A stretch of DNA of 64,000 nucleotides from an uncultured Nitrospiraceae bacterium (GTDB taxonomy: Bacteria > Nitrospirota > Nitrospiria > Nitrospirales > Nitrospiraceae): positions 896,001 to 960,000 of the forward strand of contig CAVSTP010000002.1 in the NCBI GenBank assembly GCA_963730935.1. The letters run 5' to 3'. A model generated the notes under the pieces. It searched no databases. It had not been told where the DNA came from and saw only the letters and a list, made by a program, of their open reading frames with translations. Position numbers and translations under genes: made by a program. Each line of letters begins with the position of its first letter. The stretch's first letter is position 1. Shown here one piece after another: positions 9,019 through 51,247 of this stretch.

Positions 9019-11031
9019 TTACTCCAAGAAATTGCGCGGAGGACTGGCCACACCATTCCGACCAACGGCTGGTACTTCTACTTGCGCATCTGTCGCCGTA
9101 GGAGTTCCATTACTATTACCACTGCTGGTCACACCACTTTGATTACCAGGATGTCCATTGGGAATGAACAATTGCGGGTGATCAAAGGGTGCTTGCTCGT
9201 GCAAGACTCGCGGATCAGTTAATCCGTTTCTCATGAAGATAACCAAATCGGCTTGTTTCTCGTTAGATAAGCCCAACGGATCAGCTGATGAATTAAAATC
9301 TCGACCACGATTGTAAAATTGTACGACCTCCTCCAGCGTTGCCATCCCACCATTATGGAAGTATGGAGCGGTCAAGGCGATGTTGCGTAAGTGAGGTATT
9401 TTAAATCTTGCGGTACTGTCGGTTCCTCCTCCTAGATCCTCCAAAGCGGGCCTCACACCGTAGTTCGCCTGAAAGCCATTCGCGAACGCATTAATTAGTG
9501 GATTACCAGAATCAGTTGATGTTACGCCCGCAGTTCTTCTTACAGAAGCCTTGGTGAATTCTGGAATCGTGTGGCAGCTGTTGCAGTTCCCTCCGCCATT
9601 GGCGACATTATTGACAAACACCGTCAGGCCCCTAATCTCTTGCGGAGAGAGGGCACTAGTATCACCCGCCTGGAATCTGTCAAACGGTGTTTGGTCCGAC
9701 ACGAGCGTAGACAGATACTTTTGAATGGCTAAGCCGGCAAACAACGAGAAGTTCCACTGCCTGAGCTCATATTGATTTGTAGGCGAAGGCTGGACGACCG
9801 CGCGGTTACCCAAGATTGTGTGAGTTCCATCAGAATTAACCTGAATGATTTTGTTTGAATTCCACCATTCTGGCTTGAAGCTCTGTTTGATCAGAATATC
9901 GTAGCTTGGTGTCATCAGACCAGGCTGCGGCGATCTGCTATCAGCCCCTAAAACACCGTCTTCAGGATGTACCCGTTGTTTCGCAAGGGGTCTCAGGGTC
10001 ATGAGTTTTGCCCCTCCTTTCCGAAGGAACTTGCTGCCGATTTCTCGGTGAGTACGGCCATCGGCGGACATTTCAAATATGCTTAACTGCGGCCCAGTAA
10101 CGAGGGAAGCAAGAGAGGAATTGTTGAGCCCAATTTGAACTTGGGTGAGTGTGTTCGCATTGGGTGCCCGGTAAACAAACGCTGTTGTGTCGGCTGCGCC
10201 CTGTATATTCACCCCGTTGAAGGTTTCCTTAGCGCGACCATCCCAAAACTGCAGTTTGTTGAAAATCGCATCGAATACCGTTGGAGCATTCCGCGGCTCA
10301 ACTCGGCGTATATTGATTCCATTGATACTGAAACCGTCCTGATCGGGCATGGATTGAACATTATCCGCTGCTTGACCCGGAACGGTGCTGATCAGCACGG
10401 AATAAAATACACCCTGGGATGAGGCGACATCGTTCGTATCCGACAGGAGCGTACTCGGCCCGGCTGGGCACTGTGAACTCACTGGCGCATCGACGCGACA
10501 GTTCGGATTTGAAAGCTTCCGAAACGGGAAATCGGCGGCGGTGAGTTGATAATTCGGCCCACCTCCCACTAATGAGGAAAATGACTTATCTTGCGGCGAT
10601 GCTAAAAGGCCCGGGCTAATCTGATTCTTCGATCTGTTATCAGCTCCGGCATGAAAGTGACAACTTGCACAGGATTGCATGCCGTCGCTGCCGAGTTGCA
10701 TGTCCCAAAACAGAGCCTTCCCTAGCTTCAGTAGGGCTGTTTCGTCTTTAACAAAGTCACTGAGATTGGCGGGTGGCGCCACCGCCGTAAGGCGTGGCGG
10801 TGGGGATGATGCAGTAGGATCTGCCGCGGTTGCCGGCGGCTTACTTGTTATGGCATCGAGTGGGGCTGGATTCTCAGCTGGTCCCGCCAATATGAGACTT
10901 CCACCTACGATTGGTGACACGAAGATAAGAACTTCCAGCAAGCGCACGACCCTTTTCAAGGGCAAACTTTCTTCAAATCTTGAGCAAACACGTCTGCACG
11001 TGCCAAACAACCCTGCTAATCGAGTATTCAT
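9019..11031 (-). CDS. Large di-heme cytochrome c peroxidase / MauG family protein
   Basis: LGKALFWD, CASCH and CNSCH heme sites, QFWDGRA, FKIPHLRNIALTAPYFHNG. Confidence 0.9.
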   Translation of the reverse strand: MNTRLAGLFGTCRRVCSRFEESLPLKRVVRLLEVLIFVSPIVGGSLILAGPAENPAPLDAITSKPPATAADPTASSPPPRLTAVAPPANLSDFVKDETALLKLGKALFWDMQLGSDGMQSCASCHFHAGADNRSKNQISPGLLASPQDKSFSSLVGGGPNYQLTAADFPFRKLSNPNCRVDAPVSSQCPAGPSTLLSDTNDVASSQGVFYSVLISTVPGQAADNVQSMPDQDGFSINGINIRRVEPRNAPTVFDAIFNKLQFWDGRAKETFNGVNIQGAADTTAFVYRAPNANTLTQVQIGLNNSSLASLVTGPQLSIFEMSADGRTHREIGSKFLRKGGAKLMTLRPLAKQRVHPEDGVLGADSRSPQPGLMTPSYDILIKQSFKPEWWNSNKIIQVNSDGTHTILGNRAVVQPSPTNQYELRQWNFSLFAGLAIQKYLSTLVSDQTPFDRFQAGDTSALSPQEIRGLTVFVNNVANGGGNCNSCHTIPEFTKASVRRTAGVTSTDSGNPLINAFANGFQANYGVRPALEDLGGGTDSTARFKIPHLRNIALTAPYFHNGGMATLEEVVQFYNRGRDFNSSADPLGLSNEKQADLVIFMRNGLTDPRVLHEQAPFDHPQLFIPNGHPGNQSGVTSSGNSNGTPTATDAQVEVPAVGRNGVASPPRNFLE

Positions 11032-11086
11032 AGCACCCCCTCTATGTGTTAGAGCTCAGCATGCTCGTACTCATAAGCCGAGTAGA

Positions 11087-11432
11087 CACTAGGGATCGCG
11101 ATAACTGACGACACCGCATTGGGGGTAACCCCATTGGCGTCCGAAAGGCTAAAGTGAAGCTTGACGCACTCTTCTCAAGCTTTTAAGAAAACCGAGGAAC
11201 TACGAGGTGCGATCTGCAGCTTGGAAGAGAGGACGCAGCAGAGGGGGGTCCGTCTGGGATGGACTGGAAGTATAACGATGTATTTCGTTCCGCCTAGACA
11301 TGGGCTGTTAGTAAGCCGAGAAGCAAAATATAGATAGTTATTTTGTGCGATACTGGGGAAAGCCCTGGTTATGGCTTCTCCGAGCCCTTAAGATGATTTC
11401 CTGATCTAGCATAATCACTAGGCGAGGCGATG
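11087..11432 (-). promoter_or_regulatory. Conserved non-coding leader/promoter element, copy A
   Basis: Colinear identical blocks shared with 50946-51247; minus-strand -10 TATACT at 11269-11274. Confidence 0.8.
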
Positions 11433-11674: not shown

Positions 11675-12361
11675 TCACGCCGACGCTGTGAGTTCCACCA
11701 GGCCATACTGGTGTGCGCAGATGAGCAGTTTCTGCCGATTGGAGACGCCCAGTTTGTCGAAAATGCTGGTAAGGTGGTGGCGCACAGTCGTTTCCGAAAT
11801 ACACAGACTGTTGGCGATATCGCGGTTCGACAATCCTTTCCCAAGCAGGCCAATCACTTCTCGCTCCCGGTCCGTCAATGCATCAGTGCATCGCGTTGGA
11901 TCAGCCACTGCTTTACGCTTGTCGACTTTATTGGTGATAGGGGGTTGGTTCGATGTAGCTCTCAGCGCGACGGCCAGACCCTTCCCCACACACTCAACAG
12001 TAGCCAAAAGCACTCCGGGCTGTTGACATTTCATGACGATTTCGTCGGCCCCGGCAGCCAGCGCTTGACGGGCACGATCCATTTCATCCCACCCGCTCAG
12101 TACGATAATCCGACATAGCGGGTCTTTTTGCCGAAGGGTATTGATCGCTTCCACAGATTTTAGATCCGACTCAATATCCACAAGAATCACATCCGGTCGT
12201 TGCTGCGCTATGAGATTGCATGCAGAGCTGCCCCCAGAGGACTCTCCGACCACCACAATGCCGACATGTTCTTCAAAAAGTCGGCGCAATCCCAGGAGCA
12301 GTAAAATGTTGTTGCTCACGATTGCAACTTTAAGAACAGGAATTCTCTGCTCTAACGTCAT
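11675..12361 (-). CDS. NarL/LuxR family response regulator (orphan)
   Basis: Receiver PDVILVDI; HTH LTDREREVIGLLGKGLSNRDIA...TVRHHLTSIFDKLGV. Confidence 0.93.
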   Translation of the reverse strand: MTLEQRIPVLKVAIVSNNILLLLGLRRLFEEHVGIVVVGESSGGSSACNLIAQQRPDVILVDIESDLKSVEAINTLRQKDPLCRIIVLSGWDEMDRARQALAAGADEIVMKCQQPGVLLATVECVGKGLAVALRATSNQPPITNKVDKRKAVADPTRCTDALTDREREVIGLLGKGLSNRDIANSLCISETTVRHHLTSIFDKLGVSNRQKLLICAHQYGLVELTASA

Positions 12362-13022: not shown

Positions 13023-13088
13023 TGTATAAGTTTCTCCGCGCTTGTATAAGTTTCCCCGCGCTCGATGTACTCACTCGATGTACTCACA
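13023..13088. repeat. Adjacent tandem repeats, 2x20 bp then 2x13 bp
   Basis: TGTATAAGTTTC(T/C)CCGCGCT twice, then CGATGTACTCAC(T/A) twice. Confidence 0.9.
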
Positions 13089-13167
13089 TGGGACTGAGAC
13101 GGCGAAGCTATATCTTTCCTTTGAACCTTTTCACTTTGAAACCATTATGGCAAGAAGGAGTGCGGCA

Positions 13168-13680
13168 ATGTCGCATAAGGTGAACACTTCATTGCCTTAC
13201 TGGTTCGCGCTTCGCACTCGTTCACGGCACGAAAAGGTCGTGCGAGATCGTCTTGAGGGAAATGGGTTCGAGCAGTTTCTTCCCCTCACAAGAACGCTGA
13301 GGCGATGGTCGGATCGCAATACATGGACGCAGTTCCCTCTATTTTCAGGTTATTGTTTCGCCCGATTTGCGTTGCACTCACGATTGGACGTTCTGCGGAT
13401 TCCGGGCATCATCAACATCGTGGGAATCGAGGGACCCGAACCGATTCCTGAAAAAGAACTGGACGCGTTGAAAACCGTTTCCAACAGTCAACGCGCCTGC
13501 GATTCGCACGACTATCTGAATGAGGGGACATGGGTCGAAGTTGTGCGGGGTCCGCTCACCGGAATACGAGGGCAATTCATAAGAAAAGCAGGTCAGGATT
13601 GTATCGTGCTTCGTGTTCAACTCCTCCAGCAGGCGGCAGCTGTTCACATTGATGCAAGTGAAGTAGTTAGGGTCGGCTGA
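13168..13680 (+). CDS. NusG-paralog transcription antiterminator (UpxY/RfaH-type)
   Basis: WFALRTRSRHEKVV, FLPL...WSDR...PLFSGYCF NGN domain, KOW VEVVRGPLTGIRG; AAGGAG RBS; first gene of a polysaccharide locus. Confidence 0.92.
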   Translation: MSHKVNTSLPYWFALRTRSRHEKVVRDRLEGNGFEQFLPLTRTLRRWSDRNTWTQFPLFSGYCFARFALHSRLDVLRIPGIINIVGIEGPEPIPEKELDALKTVSNSQRACDSHDYLNEGTWVEVVRGPLTGIRGQFIRKAGQDCIVLRVQLLQQAAAVHIDASEVVRVG

Positions 13681-13765
13681 TTGGAGGTTCTTGTCTTATT
13701 TGTCACTTCTCGAACTAACCGAGCGATCTGTCACCGCACAAGCAGTGAAGAAGAGGCCGGTTCGA

Positions 13766-14038
13766 ATGATGCGATTCTCAGAGAACGAGAGAAAGAAGAT
13801 TCTGCAGGAAGGTCACGATCGCGGTGGAGTGAAAAAGGTTTGCGAGCGCAACGGCATTTCGATCAGGACCTATTACCGCTGGCAAGCCATGTTTGCCCAG
13901 CAGGAAGAGACGCGCATGGCAGAGATTCGAGCCTTACAGCAGCAAAATCACCGACTAAAAGAAAAGTTCGCTGAGCTGTCCCTTGATTATCAAGCTCTCC
14001 GGGCTGCCTTGATTGCTGATGTGAAATGCGAATGTTGA
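13766..14038 (+). CDS. IS3-family OrfA-like helix-turn-helix/coiled-coil protein, no OrfB
   Basis: RFSENERKKIL...VKKVCERNGISIRTYYRWQ...IRALQQQNHRLKEKFAELSLD. Confidence 0.75.
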   Translation: MMRFSENERKKILQEGHDRGGVKKVCERNGISIRTYYRWQAMFAQQEETRMAEIRALQQQNHRLKEKFAELSLDYQALRAALIADVKCEC

Positions 14039-14234: not shown

Positions 14235-16460
14235 ATGAATCAGTATAGAAACAGCCTGGCATCATTACAGGTTAGCGGTGCCGACAGAACCGACAATACC
14301 ACCGCAGAGTATCTGAGCTTCTGCTGGCGGCGCCGGTGGCTGATCGTTGTCCTCGCCACGGGCGCCGCGACCATCTCGGCGGCATGGTCTTATATGCAGA
14401 CGCCGATCTACCAATCCAAGGCGACGGTGGTCATTGAGCAACAGGGGCCAGGGGCCCTAGAGAGGGACAAGAGCTATTACTGGGATGTCACCCCTGAATA
14501 TTTCCAAACGCATTTTGAATTGATGAAAAGCCATCGAGTGCTCCAGCAAACGGCACGGCTTCTCGATTTGCCGCAGAGAGCGGATTATCGGCCCCAACCA
14601 TCCAAGACCGCGGAGTGGCTTTCCAACTCTCTGCCGGAATTCCTCCGTGCAAGATGGATCAGCACCGCGAACGATCCCGCACCCTCTCCGGAAGAGACCG
14701 AAGACCGGATGTTGAAGCAGTTCAGTCAGCGGATCGAAATCATGCCGATTCGAGGGGCACGGCTGGCCCACATTCTTGTCAATTCGAAAGACCCCAAGTT
14801 TGCCGCGGAGGCCGCCAATACCTTGGCAACCGTCTACATCCAGAGCACACAGGAGTTGAACTCGTCTTCCAAAGAGAAGGCGTCGAAGTGGTTTACCGCC
14901 CAGTTGGACGAATTGCGCAACAGAGTGGAGCTCTCCAAGCGGGCGTTGTATGCCTTTCGGGCGAAGCACGGGCTCCTGCAAGGACAGCAGGGTCAGGCCG
15001 TGGCAGGCCAGAAGCTCACCGAATTGAATTCCGAGTTGTTGAGGGCGGAAATGAGGAAGGCCGAGACCTTCTCTCGTTTCAATGAAGTTCAATCGGTTCT
15101 GCGTAAGCGTGACGAACAGGGGGTGGATGACTGGTCCAATCTGGATGCGTCCACGGAAGTGTTGGCCTCACCGCTGATTCAGACGCTGCGGGCTCAGGAA
15201 ATCAGAGTCTCAGGGCAGGTCGCAGAACTTTCGGACAAGTACGGCCCGCTCCATCCGAAGATGGCGCGCGTGAAAGCCGAGTTGCAGGATCTCAGCGAGC
15301 GCATTCGCCGCGAAGTGCAGAAAATCTACGATTCGGTCAAGCGCGAGTACGATGTAGCGGTGGCTCGTGAACGCGCCATCAAAGAGGCGCTGCACCGCCA
15401 CAACCAGGAAAAGCTCAATCTGGAGCAGTACGAAATCGAACACGGCATATTGGAGGGGGAAACTCAAAGCAACCAACAGCTATACGACATCTTTCTGAAG
15501 GTGGCCAAAGAAACGGACGTGTCCTCGGGGATCAGGCCGAGCAATGTGTATCTGGCCGATCCTGCCGTATCGAGCGTGATTCCGGTGAAGCCAAGGAAAA
15601 TGCTGAATACGATTATGGGTTTCCTGTTGGGATTGATGACCGGTGTCGGCCTAGCCTTGGTGCTCGAGTGGCGGGACCGCAGTCTCAAAGGACCCGACGA
15701 TCTGGAGCACTATCTGCCGCAAGTCTCCTTGCTGGGGATGCTGCCGCTGATGCCCAATAGGGAGGTGGCAAACGGGGCGTTGCACTTGCCATCGGCTACG
15801 AATCCGTCGAGTCCCTTCACCGAAAGCGTTCGTGCGATCCGCACGAGTCTTTTGCTGTCGAGCCCCGACGAATTGCCGTTGTCCGTGCTGATTACGAGCC
15901 CAGGCGAAAGCGAAGGAAAAACGACGCTCGCGGTGAGCCTTGTGGTGGCGATGGCGCAATTAGAGCATGCCCGGGTGATTCTCATTGATGCGGACCTACG
16001 CAAGGCCGTGGCGCATTCGATCTTCGACGTTCAGACGAATAATGGCCGACCGCCAGGCCTGGCGGATTATCTGGAGGGAAGGGCCAGTAAAGAAGATATC
16101 GTCTATCCGACGAACATTCCCAATCTTTCCGTGATCCCACGCGGAAAACGAGCGCCCAACCCCTCCGAGCTGCTCCATTCGAAACGAATGGGCGAACTGC
16201 TCCGGTGGTATCGTCAAGAAGGTATTCAGGTCATCGTGGACGCTCCTCCGGTCTTGGCCTTCACGGATTCGGTCGTGCTGGCCACGCAGGTGGACGGAGT
16301 GCTGCTCGTGGTCAGCGCCGGTCAAACAACGCGGGAAGCCTGTCGGTTGACCGTTCAGCGCCTGGCCGATTCCAAGAGCAAGCTGCTCGGATGCGTGATG
16401 CAAAAAGCGCGTCCGATCGATGTCCCCTACTACGCCAGAGCCTACTACAAGCGCCAATGA
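14235..16460 (+). CDS. wzc: Polysaccharide co-polymerase / tyrosine autokinase (Wzc/GumC)
   Basis: Two TMs, coiled-coil periplasmic region, KYGPLHP, Walker A SPGESEGKTT, LIDADLR, VDAPP, C-terminal Tyr cluster PYYARAYY. Confidence 0.95.
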   Translation: MNQYRNSLASLQVSGADRTDNTTAEYLSFCWRRRWLIVVLATGAATISAAWSYMQTPIYQSKATVVIEQQGPGALERDKSYYWDVTPEYFQTHFELMKSHRVLQQTARLLDLPQRADYRPQPSKTAEWLSNSLPEFLRARWISTANDPAPSPEETEDRMLKQFSQRIEIMPIRGARLAHILVNSKDPKFAAEAANTLATVYIQSTQELNSSSKEKASKWFTAQLDELRNRVELSKRALYAFRAKHGLLQGQQGQAVAGQKLTELNSELLRAEMRKAETFSRFNEVQSVLRKRDEQGVDDWSNLDASTEVLASPLIQTLRAQEIRVSGQVAELSDKYGPLHPKMARVKAELQDLSERIRREVQKIYDSVKREYDVAVARERAIKEALHRHNQEKLNLEQYEIEHGILEGETQSNQQLYDIFLKVAKETDVSSGIRPSNVYLADPAVSSVIPVKPRKMLNTIMGFLLGLMTGVGLALVLEWRDRSLKGPDDLEHYLPQVSLLGMLPLMPNREVANGALHLPSATNPSSPFTESVRAIRTSLLLSSPDELPLSVLITSPGESEGKTTLAVSLVVAMAQLEHARVILIDADLRKAVAHSIFDVQTNNGRPPGLADYLEGRASKEDIVYPTNIPNLSVIPRGKRAPNPSELLHSKRMGELLRWYRQEGIQVIVDAPPVLAFTDSVVLATQVDGVLLVVSAGQTTREACRLTVQRLADSKSKLLGCVMQKARPIDVPYYARAYYKRQ

Positions 16461-49505: not shown

Positions 49506-50891
49506 CTAGAGCGATCGCAAGAAATTCATCACATTTTGTTTATCGATCTCATTCAAAGCATTGAAATTCTCAATGACTTGATTCGCTTCAGAGGGTGGAA
49601 TAACGCCAGCGCCCGCGCTCGCATGGGCCCGGATGGCTGCCAGCAGATCTTTTGTGCGTCCATCGTGCAGAAAAAAAATCCGTTTCCCAAGACCCCACAG
49701 TGGTGCAGTTCGAAACTCGTCTCCGGCGGCAGCGCCCTGGCTAATGCCATCGGCGAGATTCGGTCCCATGTTGTGTAGGGCTAAATCAGAAAATAAATTC
49801 ACCTCTTTCCTCTGCAAGGCGGCGACTGAAGACTTTCCAGTATGAAGTGTAGGGGTATGGCATAGAGCACAGCCGGTATCTTCGAATAGCTTTCGACCGC
49901 TCACAGTTGACGCATTGTCTGGGGTGGGCGTCGAAGGTGCGAGCAGTCGCATGAAGACCGCGAACTTTACCACATCGCTCGGCGCTTCCAAGGGGTTGAC
50001 CGCGTCGAAATGCGTTGGACTTTCAGGCGTGCTATTGAATTTACACCCTCGAGCTTCATCGCGCTCCTGAGGAAACAGATCACTCGTCACTCCTTGCTCT
50101 ACGTTATAGGCCTCACCAGAGAACAGCTCGAGTGATTTGTTCTGCGCTTTCCACCCAAATCGAGTGATCGTTCCGTCGTTACCGCTTACGTTTGGTCGGC
50201 CCGTCATGTTCGGTTTTCCCCTAATGCCTAACGACAGTTTGGTGGCAGCATTTGCTTGTAGGTTGTCCAGGATCGTATCGTCGTCGATGGCTTCGATGAG
50301 CCCGGCGCCAAAGGTAGGAGTCGGTATTCGAAGAGCCACATTCTGCGTTGCCACGGCGGTGCGGAAGTCCGGCTGATGCAAGACGCAGCCTGGGGCATCG
50401 CTGCGGCCAGTGATGGTGAAAAGCGCTTGCACACCGCCATCTGGTAAGCCGTTTGGAAGGAATTTGAATCGCGCTTCCCGTATCGGTCCGTCGACAGTGA
50501 TGAAAGACGGTATTTCGTTGGTTGCTCCGGCTTTTTTGGCCACAGCGATTTGAGGATTGACTGCCGGACTGCTTCCCCCAATATCTGGTTGGACATGACA
50601 ACCGGCGCAACTATCGAGGTTGAAACGCGGCCCAAGACCTGCTTCTGTATCGGGCAATGTGCCTTGTACCGATCCAACCTCCTCGAATACTTCTCGACCG
50701 ATGGCGAAGGCCTGTTGCTCAACTGACGTGAGGCCCGGAAGCATTCCGCCGGCTCCATTGGAACCAGGGCGCACCCCGGGATCGCTGGCCGTAAATTTTG
50801 CGATCTGAGATTGGACATTGATGGCAAATGCTACGGCCACAATGAAGACGAGCGTTGACACGCCGATCGCGCGACTCATTTTCCCATTCAT
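49506..50891 (-). CDS. Di-heme oxidoreductase (DHOR-like) family protein
   Basis: Signal peptide, GLGPRFNLDSCAGCH, RFGWKAQ, AYNVEQG, GCALCH, LFSDLALHNMG, EFRTAPLWG, FLHDGR. Confidence 0.9.
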   Translation of the reverse strand: MNGKMSRAIGVSTLVFIVAVAFAINVQSQIAKFTASDPGVRPGSNGAGGMLPGLTSVEQQAFAIGREVFEEVGSVQGTLPDTEAGLGPRFNLDSCAGCHVQPDIGGSSPAVNPQIAVAKKAGATNEIPSFITVDGPIREARFKFLPNGLPDGGVQALFTITGRSDAPGCVLHQPDFRTAVATQNVALRIPTPTFGAGLIEAIDDDTILDNLQANAATKLSLGIRGKPNMTGRPNVSGNDGTITRFGWKAQNKSLELFSGEAYNVEQGVTSDLFPQERDEARGCKFNSTPESPTHFDAVNPLEAPSDVVKFAVFMRLLAPSTPTPDNASTVSGRKLFEDTGCALCHTPTLHTGKSSVAALQRKEVNLFSDLALHNMGPNLADGISQGAAAGDEFRTAPLWGLGKRIFFLHDGRTKDLLAAIRAHASAGAGVIPPSEANQVIENFNALNEIDKQNVMNFLRSL

Positions 50892-50945
50892 GAGAGCCTC
50901 CCTTCGCACAGTCGGAGAGATTTAGTCGTACAGAAACCCTACTTG

Positions 50946-51247
50946 CACTAGGGATCGCGATAACTCGGCACGCCCCATTGGGGGTGGCCCCAGTGGCGTC
51001 CGAAACGCGCGGAACCGCGACGTCTTATCAGCAGATTGGAAGAGAGGAAGGCAGCAGAGGGGGGTCCGTCTGTGACGGGCTTGAACTATAACGATTCATT
51101 TCGTCCGGCCTAGACATGGTGTGTTCGCAAGCCGAGAGCAAAATACGCGTATTTTTCTTGAGGGTCACTCGGAAGAACCCTGGTTATTGAGCGTTGGAGC
51201 CCTTGGGAGGATTTTCTAATCTAGGATAATCCTTAGGCGAGGCAATG
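50946..51247 (-). promoter_or_regulatory. Conserved non-coding leader/promoter element, copy B
   Basis: Homologous to 11087-11432; minus-strand -10 TATAGT at 51085-51090. Confidence 0.8.

Follow-up and report, generated by a model that had tools for sequence, protein, structure and literature searches.

The leader and arrest peptides compared here are of several kinds. TnaC, with about 24 residues, has an aromatic residue about ten positions before its terminal Pro and a C-rich stretch after it, belongs to a single locus and stalls at its own stop codon. MgtL, the leader of mgtA, is a short, C-rich, proline-containing leader with acidic residues on which a ribosome could gate Rho, and it serves a single locus, a metal transporter with a tested Mg2+ response (PMC12856214). 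SecM, ApdA/ApdP, RQH and uA_LPPP carry a conserved motif of RAPP-like or LPPP type that ends in Pro-Pro near the end of the upstream ORF (uORF), usually behind an exported N-terminus and before secA, secDF or yidC (PMC10987492). At the Rae1-sensitive spyA/bmrX and the SPP site of fliY, a short ORF or XPP pause controls mRNA fate, and no multi-copy peptide family is described in the abstract (PMC12407103). The closest concept is the mycobacterial Cys ribulon, in which several unlinked operons are each led by a polycysteine, leaderless short ORF; ribosome pausing was proposed as the coordinator, sequestration of the Shine-Dalgarno (SD) was shown at one locus, and the ORFs, described as independently evolved, have a run of Cys codons only (Canestrari et al., 10.1101/834739). 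Among the systems compared, SecM-type, MgtL and TnaC leaders thus have one target each, and the Cys ribulon consists of simple codon runs.

The window analysed here is a 64,000-nucleotide stretch of DNA from an uncultured Nitrospiraceae bacterium, in which a preliminary description had found two matching stretches about 40 kb apart. The shared stretch reads as a duplicated promoter-leader cassette, composed of putative dyad operator(s), a putative promoter, a short leader ORF and a decaying spacer. Its conserved core is an unannotated short ORF for a peptide of about 20–35 residues with the motif RYxSSPSQ(T/S)DPP, which belongs to a family known from two Nitrospiraceae genera, where a genome may hold as many as nine copies. 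Coding-type selection, copy number and a position about 100 nt 5' of a same-strand gene are established for this family. What sets it apart from the systems compared is a homologous 12-residue motif reused at many loci. The explanation to which sequence comparison inclines us, by a modest preference, is a cis-acting, conditional ribosome-stalling leader peptide that forms a multi-locus "ribulon".

As in the Cys ribulon, several unlinked transcripts are each led by a short ORF, but the Nitrospira copies are homologous, have twelve ordered residues and are not clearly leaderless, and they precede surface and envelope genes with no evident amino-acid pathway. An amino-acid attenuator or Cys-ribulon type was rejected on the ordered, mixed motif and on downstream genes that are not those of His, Ser or Pro biosynthesis. 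TnaC is similar in length, aromatic-to-Pro spacing and the C-rich stretch downstream, whereas the Nitrospira stop codon lies 1–16 codons past PP, the motif survives in a long ORF and nine loci are involved. The MgtL leader shares the features given above, but the genes behind the Nitrospira leader are diverse, and we know of no sequence likeness between the two. At about 19 residues when PP is reached, the Nitrospira peptide is too short for the pulling-force sensing of Sec-type arrest peptides. Membership of the Sec/YidC arrest families was rejected since no secA, secDF or yidC occurs among the downstream proteins scanned, and also on the motif itself, with its Q(T/S)DPP and polar 7-residue N-terminus; neither "DPP" nor "Nitrospir" occurs in the main text of PMC10987492. 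The peptide would work like a leader or arrest peptide, yet it belongs neither to the arrest families that monitor Sec or YidC nor to the amino-acid attenuators or the riboswitches.

Duplicated cassette and the genes behind it

BLAST within the genome aligns positions 11087–11432 with the second stretch about 40 kb away, with 77% and 85% identity over two collinear pieces (E 4e-45 and 3e-12), in agreement with the collinearity noted beforehand. The five identical blocks are present in both copies (11087/50946, 11235/51051, 11292/51108, 11363/51178 and 11419/51234), and the copies end 55 nt (copy 1) and 54 nt (copy 2) before the downstream ATG, as had been described. BLASTN detects no third full-length copy in the 4.05-Mb genome (G000). 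Pfam confirms the di-heme pair, CCP_MauG (PF03150) after copy 1 and DHOR (PF06537) after copy 2, and the two proteins are indeed dissimilar (best BLASTP E 0.33). The stretch had also been called non-coding, which does not hold, as each copy contains a conserved short ORF on the minus strand (11200–11301 and 51028–51117). The downstream genes and their immediate 5' features are as follows.

9019–11031, minus strand: downstream gene 1, CcP/MauG-family di-heme protein, 670 aa (Pfam)
49506–50891, minus strand: downstream gene 2, DHOR-family di-heme protein, 461 aa from its ATG (Pfam)
11036–11043, minus strand: CcP/MauG Shine-Dalgarno, with predicted base pairing to the 3' portion of the leader ORF, which is rich in pyrimidines (MFE and centroid)
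50896–50905, minus strand: DHOR Shine-Dalgarno, with predicted base pairing to the 3' portion of the leader ORF (MFE and centroid)
11087–11106, minus strand: 20-nt block of copy 1, containing a dyad half-site (alignment)
50946–50965, minus strand: 20-nt block of copy 2 (alignment)

DNA searches for the cassette covered 61, 33 and 371 genomes, plus a metagenome scan. A DHOR ortholog in G030 is preceded by the cassette, and collinear copies in G032 and G028 stand before a fibronectin-III lipoprotein without a heme motif. The metagenome scan returned 16 cassette loci, 8 before a CcP gene, 3 before a DHOR gene and 5 of the lipoprotein class. The 3' 20-nt block of the cassette aligns with the Shine-Dalgarno and first codons of the relatives' lipoprotein gene and is probably a decayed remnant of that gene start; because of this alignment, the cassette was probably captured from a fibronectin-III lipoprotein locus. 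Collinear copies differ by an in-frame 6-nt deletion and by TGA/TAA swaps. An exact 21-nt block was absent from 185,579 genomes, a set that possibly lacks the near relatives. Contigs from RNA libraries extend over the leader (X5, 11098–11285; X4, the leader of a relative; X1, including the promoter); they tell nothing of strand, start or level, may be DNA and carry no weight here.

Some further observations concern individual loci. The DNA upstream of one CcP/MauG ortholog (L021, G007:C77:1-600) passes from the 5' edge of the cassette directly to the ATG, and its reading frame departs from homology after 86 residues; the genome, G007, is fragmented and 59% complete, and the loss of nearly all of the cassette from its CcP fragment reflects either faulty assembly or a deletion. 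At L004 (G000:C3:855292-855310), the end of an unrelated gene matches 19 nt of the 3' block (E 0.03), by chance or through a dyad half-site. On the plus strand, window positions 14235–48251 hold a long polysaccharide cluster with a Wzc-like protein, export proteins and a porin, situated between the two cassette copies; it is headed by a NusG-family paralog (13042–13680), followed by an ORF with an IS-type helix-turn-helix (13691–14038).

Coding character of the conserved core

When further copies are compared, BLASTN matches narrow to about 45 nt with the translation RY(T/S/I)SSPSQTDPP. The two leader ORFs of the window are listed below.

11200–11301, minus strand: leader ORF of copy 1, 33 aa, with the core RYTSSPSQTDPP at 11242–11277 (codon test; HMM E 2e-10)
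51028–51117, minus strand: leader ORF of copy 2, 29 aa, with the core RYSSSPSQTDPP at 51058–51093 (HMM E 4e-8)

Copy 2 has a second possible in-frame ATG at 51097–51099, and a 1-nt deletion downstream of the core in copy 1 gives the two peptides different C-terminal tails. A 22-nt block to which the preliminary description had drawn attention consists of the codons for Q-T-D-P-P-L-L.

Among the eight copies found by BLASTN only (seven distinct cores), the variable codon positions are the third in 12 of 12 codons, the second in one and the first in none. Pairwise codon differences between these eight copies number 176 synonymous against 17 non-synonymous in the leader frame, with 0/193 and 16/177 in the other two frames. 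An ATG exactly 7 codons (21 nt) 5' of the Arg codon of the motif is present in 48/103 loci and a stop 4 codons (12 nt) past the last Pro in 50/103, both positions having lain outside the search patterns. All three stop codons are in use among the 103 loci (TAA 42, TAG 33, TGA 27), the stop falls 1 to 16 codons after PP and is occasionally lost, and the T/S site is encoded by ACN, TCC, AGT and AGC, that is with both Ser codon families. The typical layout is M-x6-RYxSSPSQ(T/S)DPP-x4-stop, with a polar N-terminus of 7 residues. Since variation sits at third codon positions while start and stop positions are kept, selection acts at the level of the peptide, and the comparison makes it very probable that a translated leader ORF is under selection. 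The copies are related by descent, so that codon bias and p-values are overstated; amino-acid invariance within pattern-found loci is partly circular, and no weight is placed on it. Many copies have a near-cognate start codon or no clear start, and the uORF Shine-Dalgarno is close to background (mean -2.9 vs -2.4 kcal/mol; 22% vs 23% at -4 or below).

The leader peptides have no profile match in Pfam (0/3 peptides), NCBIfam (0/50) or the PDB (0). No mention of the motif was found in the main text of mostly open-access literature, and topic searches, judged by title and the start of the abstract, returned nothing on it.

Size of the family and genes led

The genome G000 contains 9 six-frame matches to the motif with at most 3 mismatches, whereas 20 shuffled versions of it averaged 0.5, and a profile HMM recovers the same 9 ORFs. 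BLASTN detects just 2 of these 9 genomic copies, and on this ground, together with variation at third codon positions, a MITE or dispersed DNA repeat was rejected as far as nucleotide identity goes. The DNA pattern matched in 46/371 family genomes, where a reversed control gave 2 matches in total. With a 23-position profile, strong hits (E <1e-5) were obtained in G000 and 21/32 other g1 genomes, in 23/85 g42 genomes, in 2/134 g40 genomes and in 0/39 g39 genomes. No motif was found in the 325 other-family genomes among the 401 genomes of the phylum that were searched, nor in viral contigs (0). Scanning 185,579 species brought up 53 loci; records titled Nitrospira, Nitrospiraceae, Nitrospirales or Nitrospirota account for 50 of them, and of the other three, one is titled "uncultured bacterium" and two come from other taxa with near-Nitrospira loci. 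The latter, MAGs titled Pyrinomonadaceae and Xanthobacteraceae (L092, L132), have closely Nitrospira-like loci and are probably mis-binned contigs.

In total, 103 distinct motif loci were collected, nearly all from Nitrospiraceae, after L170 and L171 (weak g40 matches) and L079 had been dropped. The weak g40 HMM hits in G178 and G190 were rejected as antisense chance matches on reading; G179 and G180 scored alike, and only the former two were read. The only strong g40 copies (L077 and L078, in G198 and G283) have a sugar epimerase downstream and a clear hairpin with a U-tract in the spacer. They are the best candidates for classical attenuation, though candidates only, and such single g40 copies may stem from binning contamination. 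Single copies before a sugar epimerase also fit an action through the general translation machinery.

Nearly all motif loci (100/103) lie outside any ORF of 150 or more aa, and in 99/103 a same-strand ORF of at least 50 aa starts no more than 420 nt downstream, the other 4 being cut by the end of the locus; the median spacer to the downstream gene is 101 nt in the 71 loci kept. The genes led are mostly surface-polysaccharide, lipoprotein or small unknown genes. Among 54 downstream proteins scanned, 35 have no Pfam match at E 1e-4; those matched include sugar epimerases, glycosyl-, acyl- and methyltransferases, a Wzt transporter, a glycoside hydrolase, FG-GAP and fn3 lipoproteins, a PEP-CTERM protein, DUF1328, DUF5989 and a LuxR regulator. 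Two apiosidase-like lipoproteins are also found among the downstream genes. The flanks of most copies are mutually unrelated. Di-heme genes are led in 5/103 loci by called ORF, or 6/103 if L039 is counted. Consistent di-heme genes downstream had been proposed as a check, and the check fails, given these 6/103 loci and the same cassette before a non-heme fibronectin-III lipoprotein. The preliminary description had itself named unrelated downstream genes as evidence against its reading, and the downstream genes are of this kind. Motif-bearing records include those titled CG24A, RSF11 and palsa_1310, which we take to be complete ammonia oxidisers.

Promoter region and DNA dyad

The upstream third of the cassette similarity is promoter DNA with a dyad, and the features assigned to it are these.

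11353–11368: 16-bp dyad CYRGGR-N4-YCCYRG, copy 1, 0 mismatches (pattern scan)
51168–51183: dyad, copy 2, 1 mismatch (pattern scan)
11406–11421: upstream dyad, copy 1, 2 mismatches (pattern scan)
51221–51236: upstream dyad, copy 2, 1 mismatch (pattern scan)
11325–11330, minus strand: putative -10 hexamer TATTTT, 22 nt past the dyad, copy 1 (alignment)
51140–51145, minus strand: putative -10 hexamer, copy 2 (alignment)
11675–12361, minus strand: NarL/LuxR-type response regulator adjoining copy 1, a candidate reader of the dyad only (Pfam)

The genome G000 holds 42 perfect dyads, 24 of them non-coding (by a crude mask, 21% of the genome is non-coding), compared with 9–23 sites and 1–8 non-coding ones for eight control patterns. 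A dyad lies within 250 nt upstream of 34/98 motif loci, and the box is also found upstream of the diverged copies L025, L027, L071, L138, L182 and L183. Operators of the RcsAB-box/NarL-LuxR type are dyads with a 4-nt centre upstream of polysaccharide-related genes; the Nitrospira dyad may resemble them, and a NarL/LuxR regulator adjoins copy 1. The CTAGGG-N4-CCCTAG-type dyad looks like the operator of a global regulator and would be a putative activator site about 42 nt before the presumed transcription start. At the -10 place, TAnnnT is kept in copy 2, in G030 and in the partial copy L018, and not in G032. A sigma-70 consensus scan called no minus-strand promoter in either copy, the putative -10 hexamers included. 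On the plus strand it gave one weak sigma-70-like match per copy (11388–11415 and 51203–51230), overlapping the upstream dyad; at one per copy against 0.3–0.5 expected, such matches are near chance. The "-10 box" TATACT/TATAGT of the preliminary description is instead formed by Tyr-Thr/Ser codons and is present in just 6/103 loci. One locus (L018, G030:C6:5707-5760) has the operator and -10 part alone before an unrelated gene, with no leader ORF, and promoter and leader modules can therefore travel separately.

With a dyad that is a genuine genome-wide motif (42 perfect, 24 non-coding, near 34/98 motif loci), that accounts for the upstream third of the similarity, and with a weak uORF SD, a duplicated promoter with transcription-factor boxes only has to be weighed, the ORF then being a neutral remnant of an old gene or an untranslated, codon-periodic DNA or RNA signal. 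It is nevertheless improbable, as start and stop positions are conserved with three different stop codons and both Ser codon families, no parent gene appears in 1.84 billion proteins and the flanks of most copies are unrelated.

RNA structure of the leader

A riboswitch-like or protein-binding cis-regulatory RNA had been proposed for the two copies. The cis-acting 5' leader on the minus (mRNA) strand is retained from this proposal, but what is conserved in its core is a peptide and not a fold. The structural elements are given below.

11111–11140, minus strand: hairpin, copy 1, whose inner part (11119–11134) fits the dyad with 2 mismatches (fold and dyad scan)
50970–50999, minus strand: hairpin, copy 2, whose inner part (50978–50993) fits the dyad with 1 mismatch (fold and dyad scan)
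11157–11182: inverted repeat AAGCTTGA-N10-TCAAGCTT, private to copy 1 (absent in 8/8 metagenomic CcP-class loci)

The hairpin is present in both sequences and its outer stem shows some covariation, but TGGGG-loop-CCCCA is found in 2/103 loci and is lost in orthologs. The spacer inverted repeats likewise exist in the sequence, but the AAGCTT repeat is deleted in 8/8 metagenomic CcP orthologs. In 10 collinear copies, 86% of the cells of the hairpin are paired and 4 pairs are changed on both sides; the covariation score was reached by 2/500 shuffles and comes mostly from the outer stem, the 10 rows being kin and the control kinship-blind. Of the 10 rows, 4 break the inner U-A pair and 5 the inner G-C pair. 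Three DHOR orthologs (L041, L048, L049) have the hairpin deleted and a fourth locus, L037, has it half-deleted. The hairpin is local to a subfamily. It is read as a local accessory, namely an RNA stem, an operator or both. Taken as a whole, the leaders have folds no more stable than those of shuffled sequences (z -1.0 and -0.16). As expected by the preliminary description, no known RNA family was recognised, Rfam giving 0 hits in the window at gathering score and none on the element at E<=1 (4 loci).

A riboswitch-like RNA structure that controls heme and peroxide enzymes jointly is by now largely refuted and highly improbable. In its favour are an outer stem with G-U-tolerant and two-sided changes in the 10 collinear copies and the di-heme gene after both window copies, but the leader folds do not exceed shuffles, the hairpin is missing or halved in the four loci named, its inner pairs are broken in 4/10 and 5/10 rows and its inner part fits the genome-wide dyad. 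The longest identical block is moreover made of codons, and a di-heme gene follows in 6/103 loci. A fold common to all representatives was rejected on the orthologs without the hairpin and on the 0 consensus pairs in 27 other spacers.

The motif within an oxygenase

In G335 the motif occurs in frame at about residues 53–69 of a 329-aa PhyH-like 2-oxoglutarate oxygenase (G335:C4:111244-112227; L175:1242-2231, minus strand; proteins P0003 and P0123–P0129), at a place where homologs have two residues. The insert of 15 residues is in frame in 8/8 members of one oxygenase cluster, which makes up the one motif-bearing cluster among 120 homologs listed (1/120), and it tolerates the same substitutions as the free leader ORFs. 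A related protein, P0140, has a leader-type N-terminus joined to the rest of the oxygenase; the fusion suggests recombination at the motif. When 1.84 billion proteins were searched with a profile, 55 matched, 49 of them new and consisting of short or over-extended motif ORFs or oxygenase fragments, and no parent gene of the motif is among these new hits. Retention of the motif inside a full-length oxygenase rules out a strong constitutive arrest, and a portable protein tag fits it equally well.

Such a tag, for binding, modification or degradation, or else a trans-acting small protein, with the copies as first genes of co-regulated transcripts, is a rather unlikely explanation that still carries appreciable weight. 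The in-frame 15-residue insert with its shared substitutions, the lack of a conserved RNA switch downstream and a stop that wanders 1 to 16 codons past PP, or is lost, all agree with it. Fixed orientation at a short distance from unrelated genes in 99/103 loci does not, a single trans factor would hardly need nine dispersed copies, and no partner gene was found, the oxygenase occurring in 2/5 motif-bearing genomes tested. An internal conditional pause site would explain the oxygenase insert as well.

The oxygenase was missed with this query in the other three genomes, some of them 99% and 94% complete. Because it was found in just 2/5 motif-bearing genomes, it is not a required partner, and it was rejected as the cognate enzyme on the same count. 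In G000 it lies two genes upstream of one motif copy. This position, the multi-copy short peptides and the fusion into the oxygenase recall scattered RiPP-type precursors modified by the 2-oxoglutarate oxygenase or by the di-heme enzymes, a reading to which we give very little credence: the query detected no such oxygenase in 3/5 motif-bearing genomes, there is no hypervariable core and no recurring neighbour gene for modification or export, and the di-heme enzymes look exported while the peptide, as read from its sequence, has no signal sequence.

Proposed mechanism

In the conditional ribosome-stalling leader peptide that we modestly prefer, the ribosome would pause at Asp-Pro-Pro with the preceding ten residues in the exit tunnel; a nascent peptide of 19 residues, the usual length here at PP, would lie within that tunnel. 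The pause would depend on a cellular condition, such as the supply of EF-P or tRNA-Pro, an ion or a metabolite. The paused ribosome could then cover a C-rich, G-poor stretch that otherwise would act as a Rho loading site or as a partner of the downstream SD, and one signal would tune many unlinked surface-polysaccharide, lipoprotein and stress genes, including the two di-heme genes. Through the shared peptide, the ribosome probably switches nine different genes on or off together. More tentatively, the motif may be a homologous, sequence-specific nascent-peptide sensor that was copied as a regulatory module into the 5' leaders of up to nine unlinked envelope and stress genes per genome, and grafted into an enzyme in one lineage; the response of the ribosome to one signal would then define a regulon that has no transcription factor of its own.

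DPP stands among the strong pause motifs that depend on EF-P (PMC4739656). The genes rho and efp are present. The Pro codons of DPP are CCY in 51/64 loci at each site, compared with 0.42 genome-wide, and the base content is C 0.43 and G 0.17 in the core and C 0.35 and G 0.18 in the tail. Twenty loci in which the gene start was doubtful or the match due to chance were taken out manually before the folding tests, and filters removed further ones; 71 and 64 loci remained. Folding predicts, for both window copies, pairing of the downstream SD with the 3' part of the ORF, which is rich in pyrimidines, and predicted pairing of the SD with the TDPP region is about twice as high in native as in synonymously recoded sequences (0.166 vs 0.086). 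Overall SD accessibility is alike (0.305 native vs 0.315 recoded, p 0.52), and with a simulated ribosome footprint a gain above 0.2 is seen in just 14/71 loci. The output step would most likely be Rho gating or SD occlusion. An intrinsic terminator as the common output was rejected, terminator-like hairpins occurring in 12/88 spacers. For 27 main-subfamily spacers RNAalifold returned no consensus pair, and a common spacer fold was rejected on this result; single spacers fold with z from -2.2 to +1.3.

The pause could also act with the opposite sign, as a destabilising signal that recruits a Rae1-like endonuclease or uncouples transcription, the leader then repressing its gene. Rae1 cuts upstream of SPP-stalled ribosomes and within short ORFs in B. 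subtilis (PMC12407103), G000 encodes an NYN_YacP protein of the Rae1 family (G000:C4:1224204-1224575) and repression would be the natural effect of the oxygenase insert. This variant is nonetheless decidedly unlikely, as NYN_YacP is present in 70/72 family genomes, motif or not, and is available rather than linked. A Rae1-like nuclease as dedicated partner was rejected as non-discriminating on the same 70/72 genomes; among 14 control genomes, NYN_YacP was found in Bacillus and Synechococcus only.

If the conditional-stalling reading is true, a regulon could be built in a new way, from one homologous motif that stands before dozens of different genes and is tolerated within a protein. The motif would in addition provide a natural mutational scan of a tunnel-interacting sequence, with more than 100 variants in which fixed and free positions are visible. 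The motif occurs in two genera of Nitrospira-type nitrifiers, in which gene regulation is little studied, and points at the control of surface polysaccharide and envelope. Six loci (L081, L092, L110, L135, L168 and L177) share sequence in the spacer after the stop codon, with a CGCCGUC/GACGGCG stem in some members.
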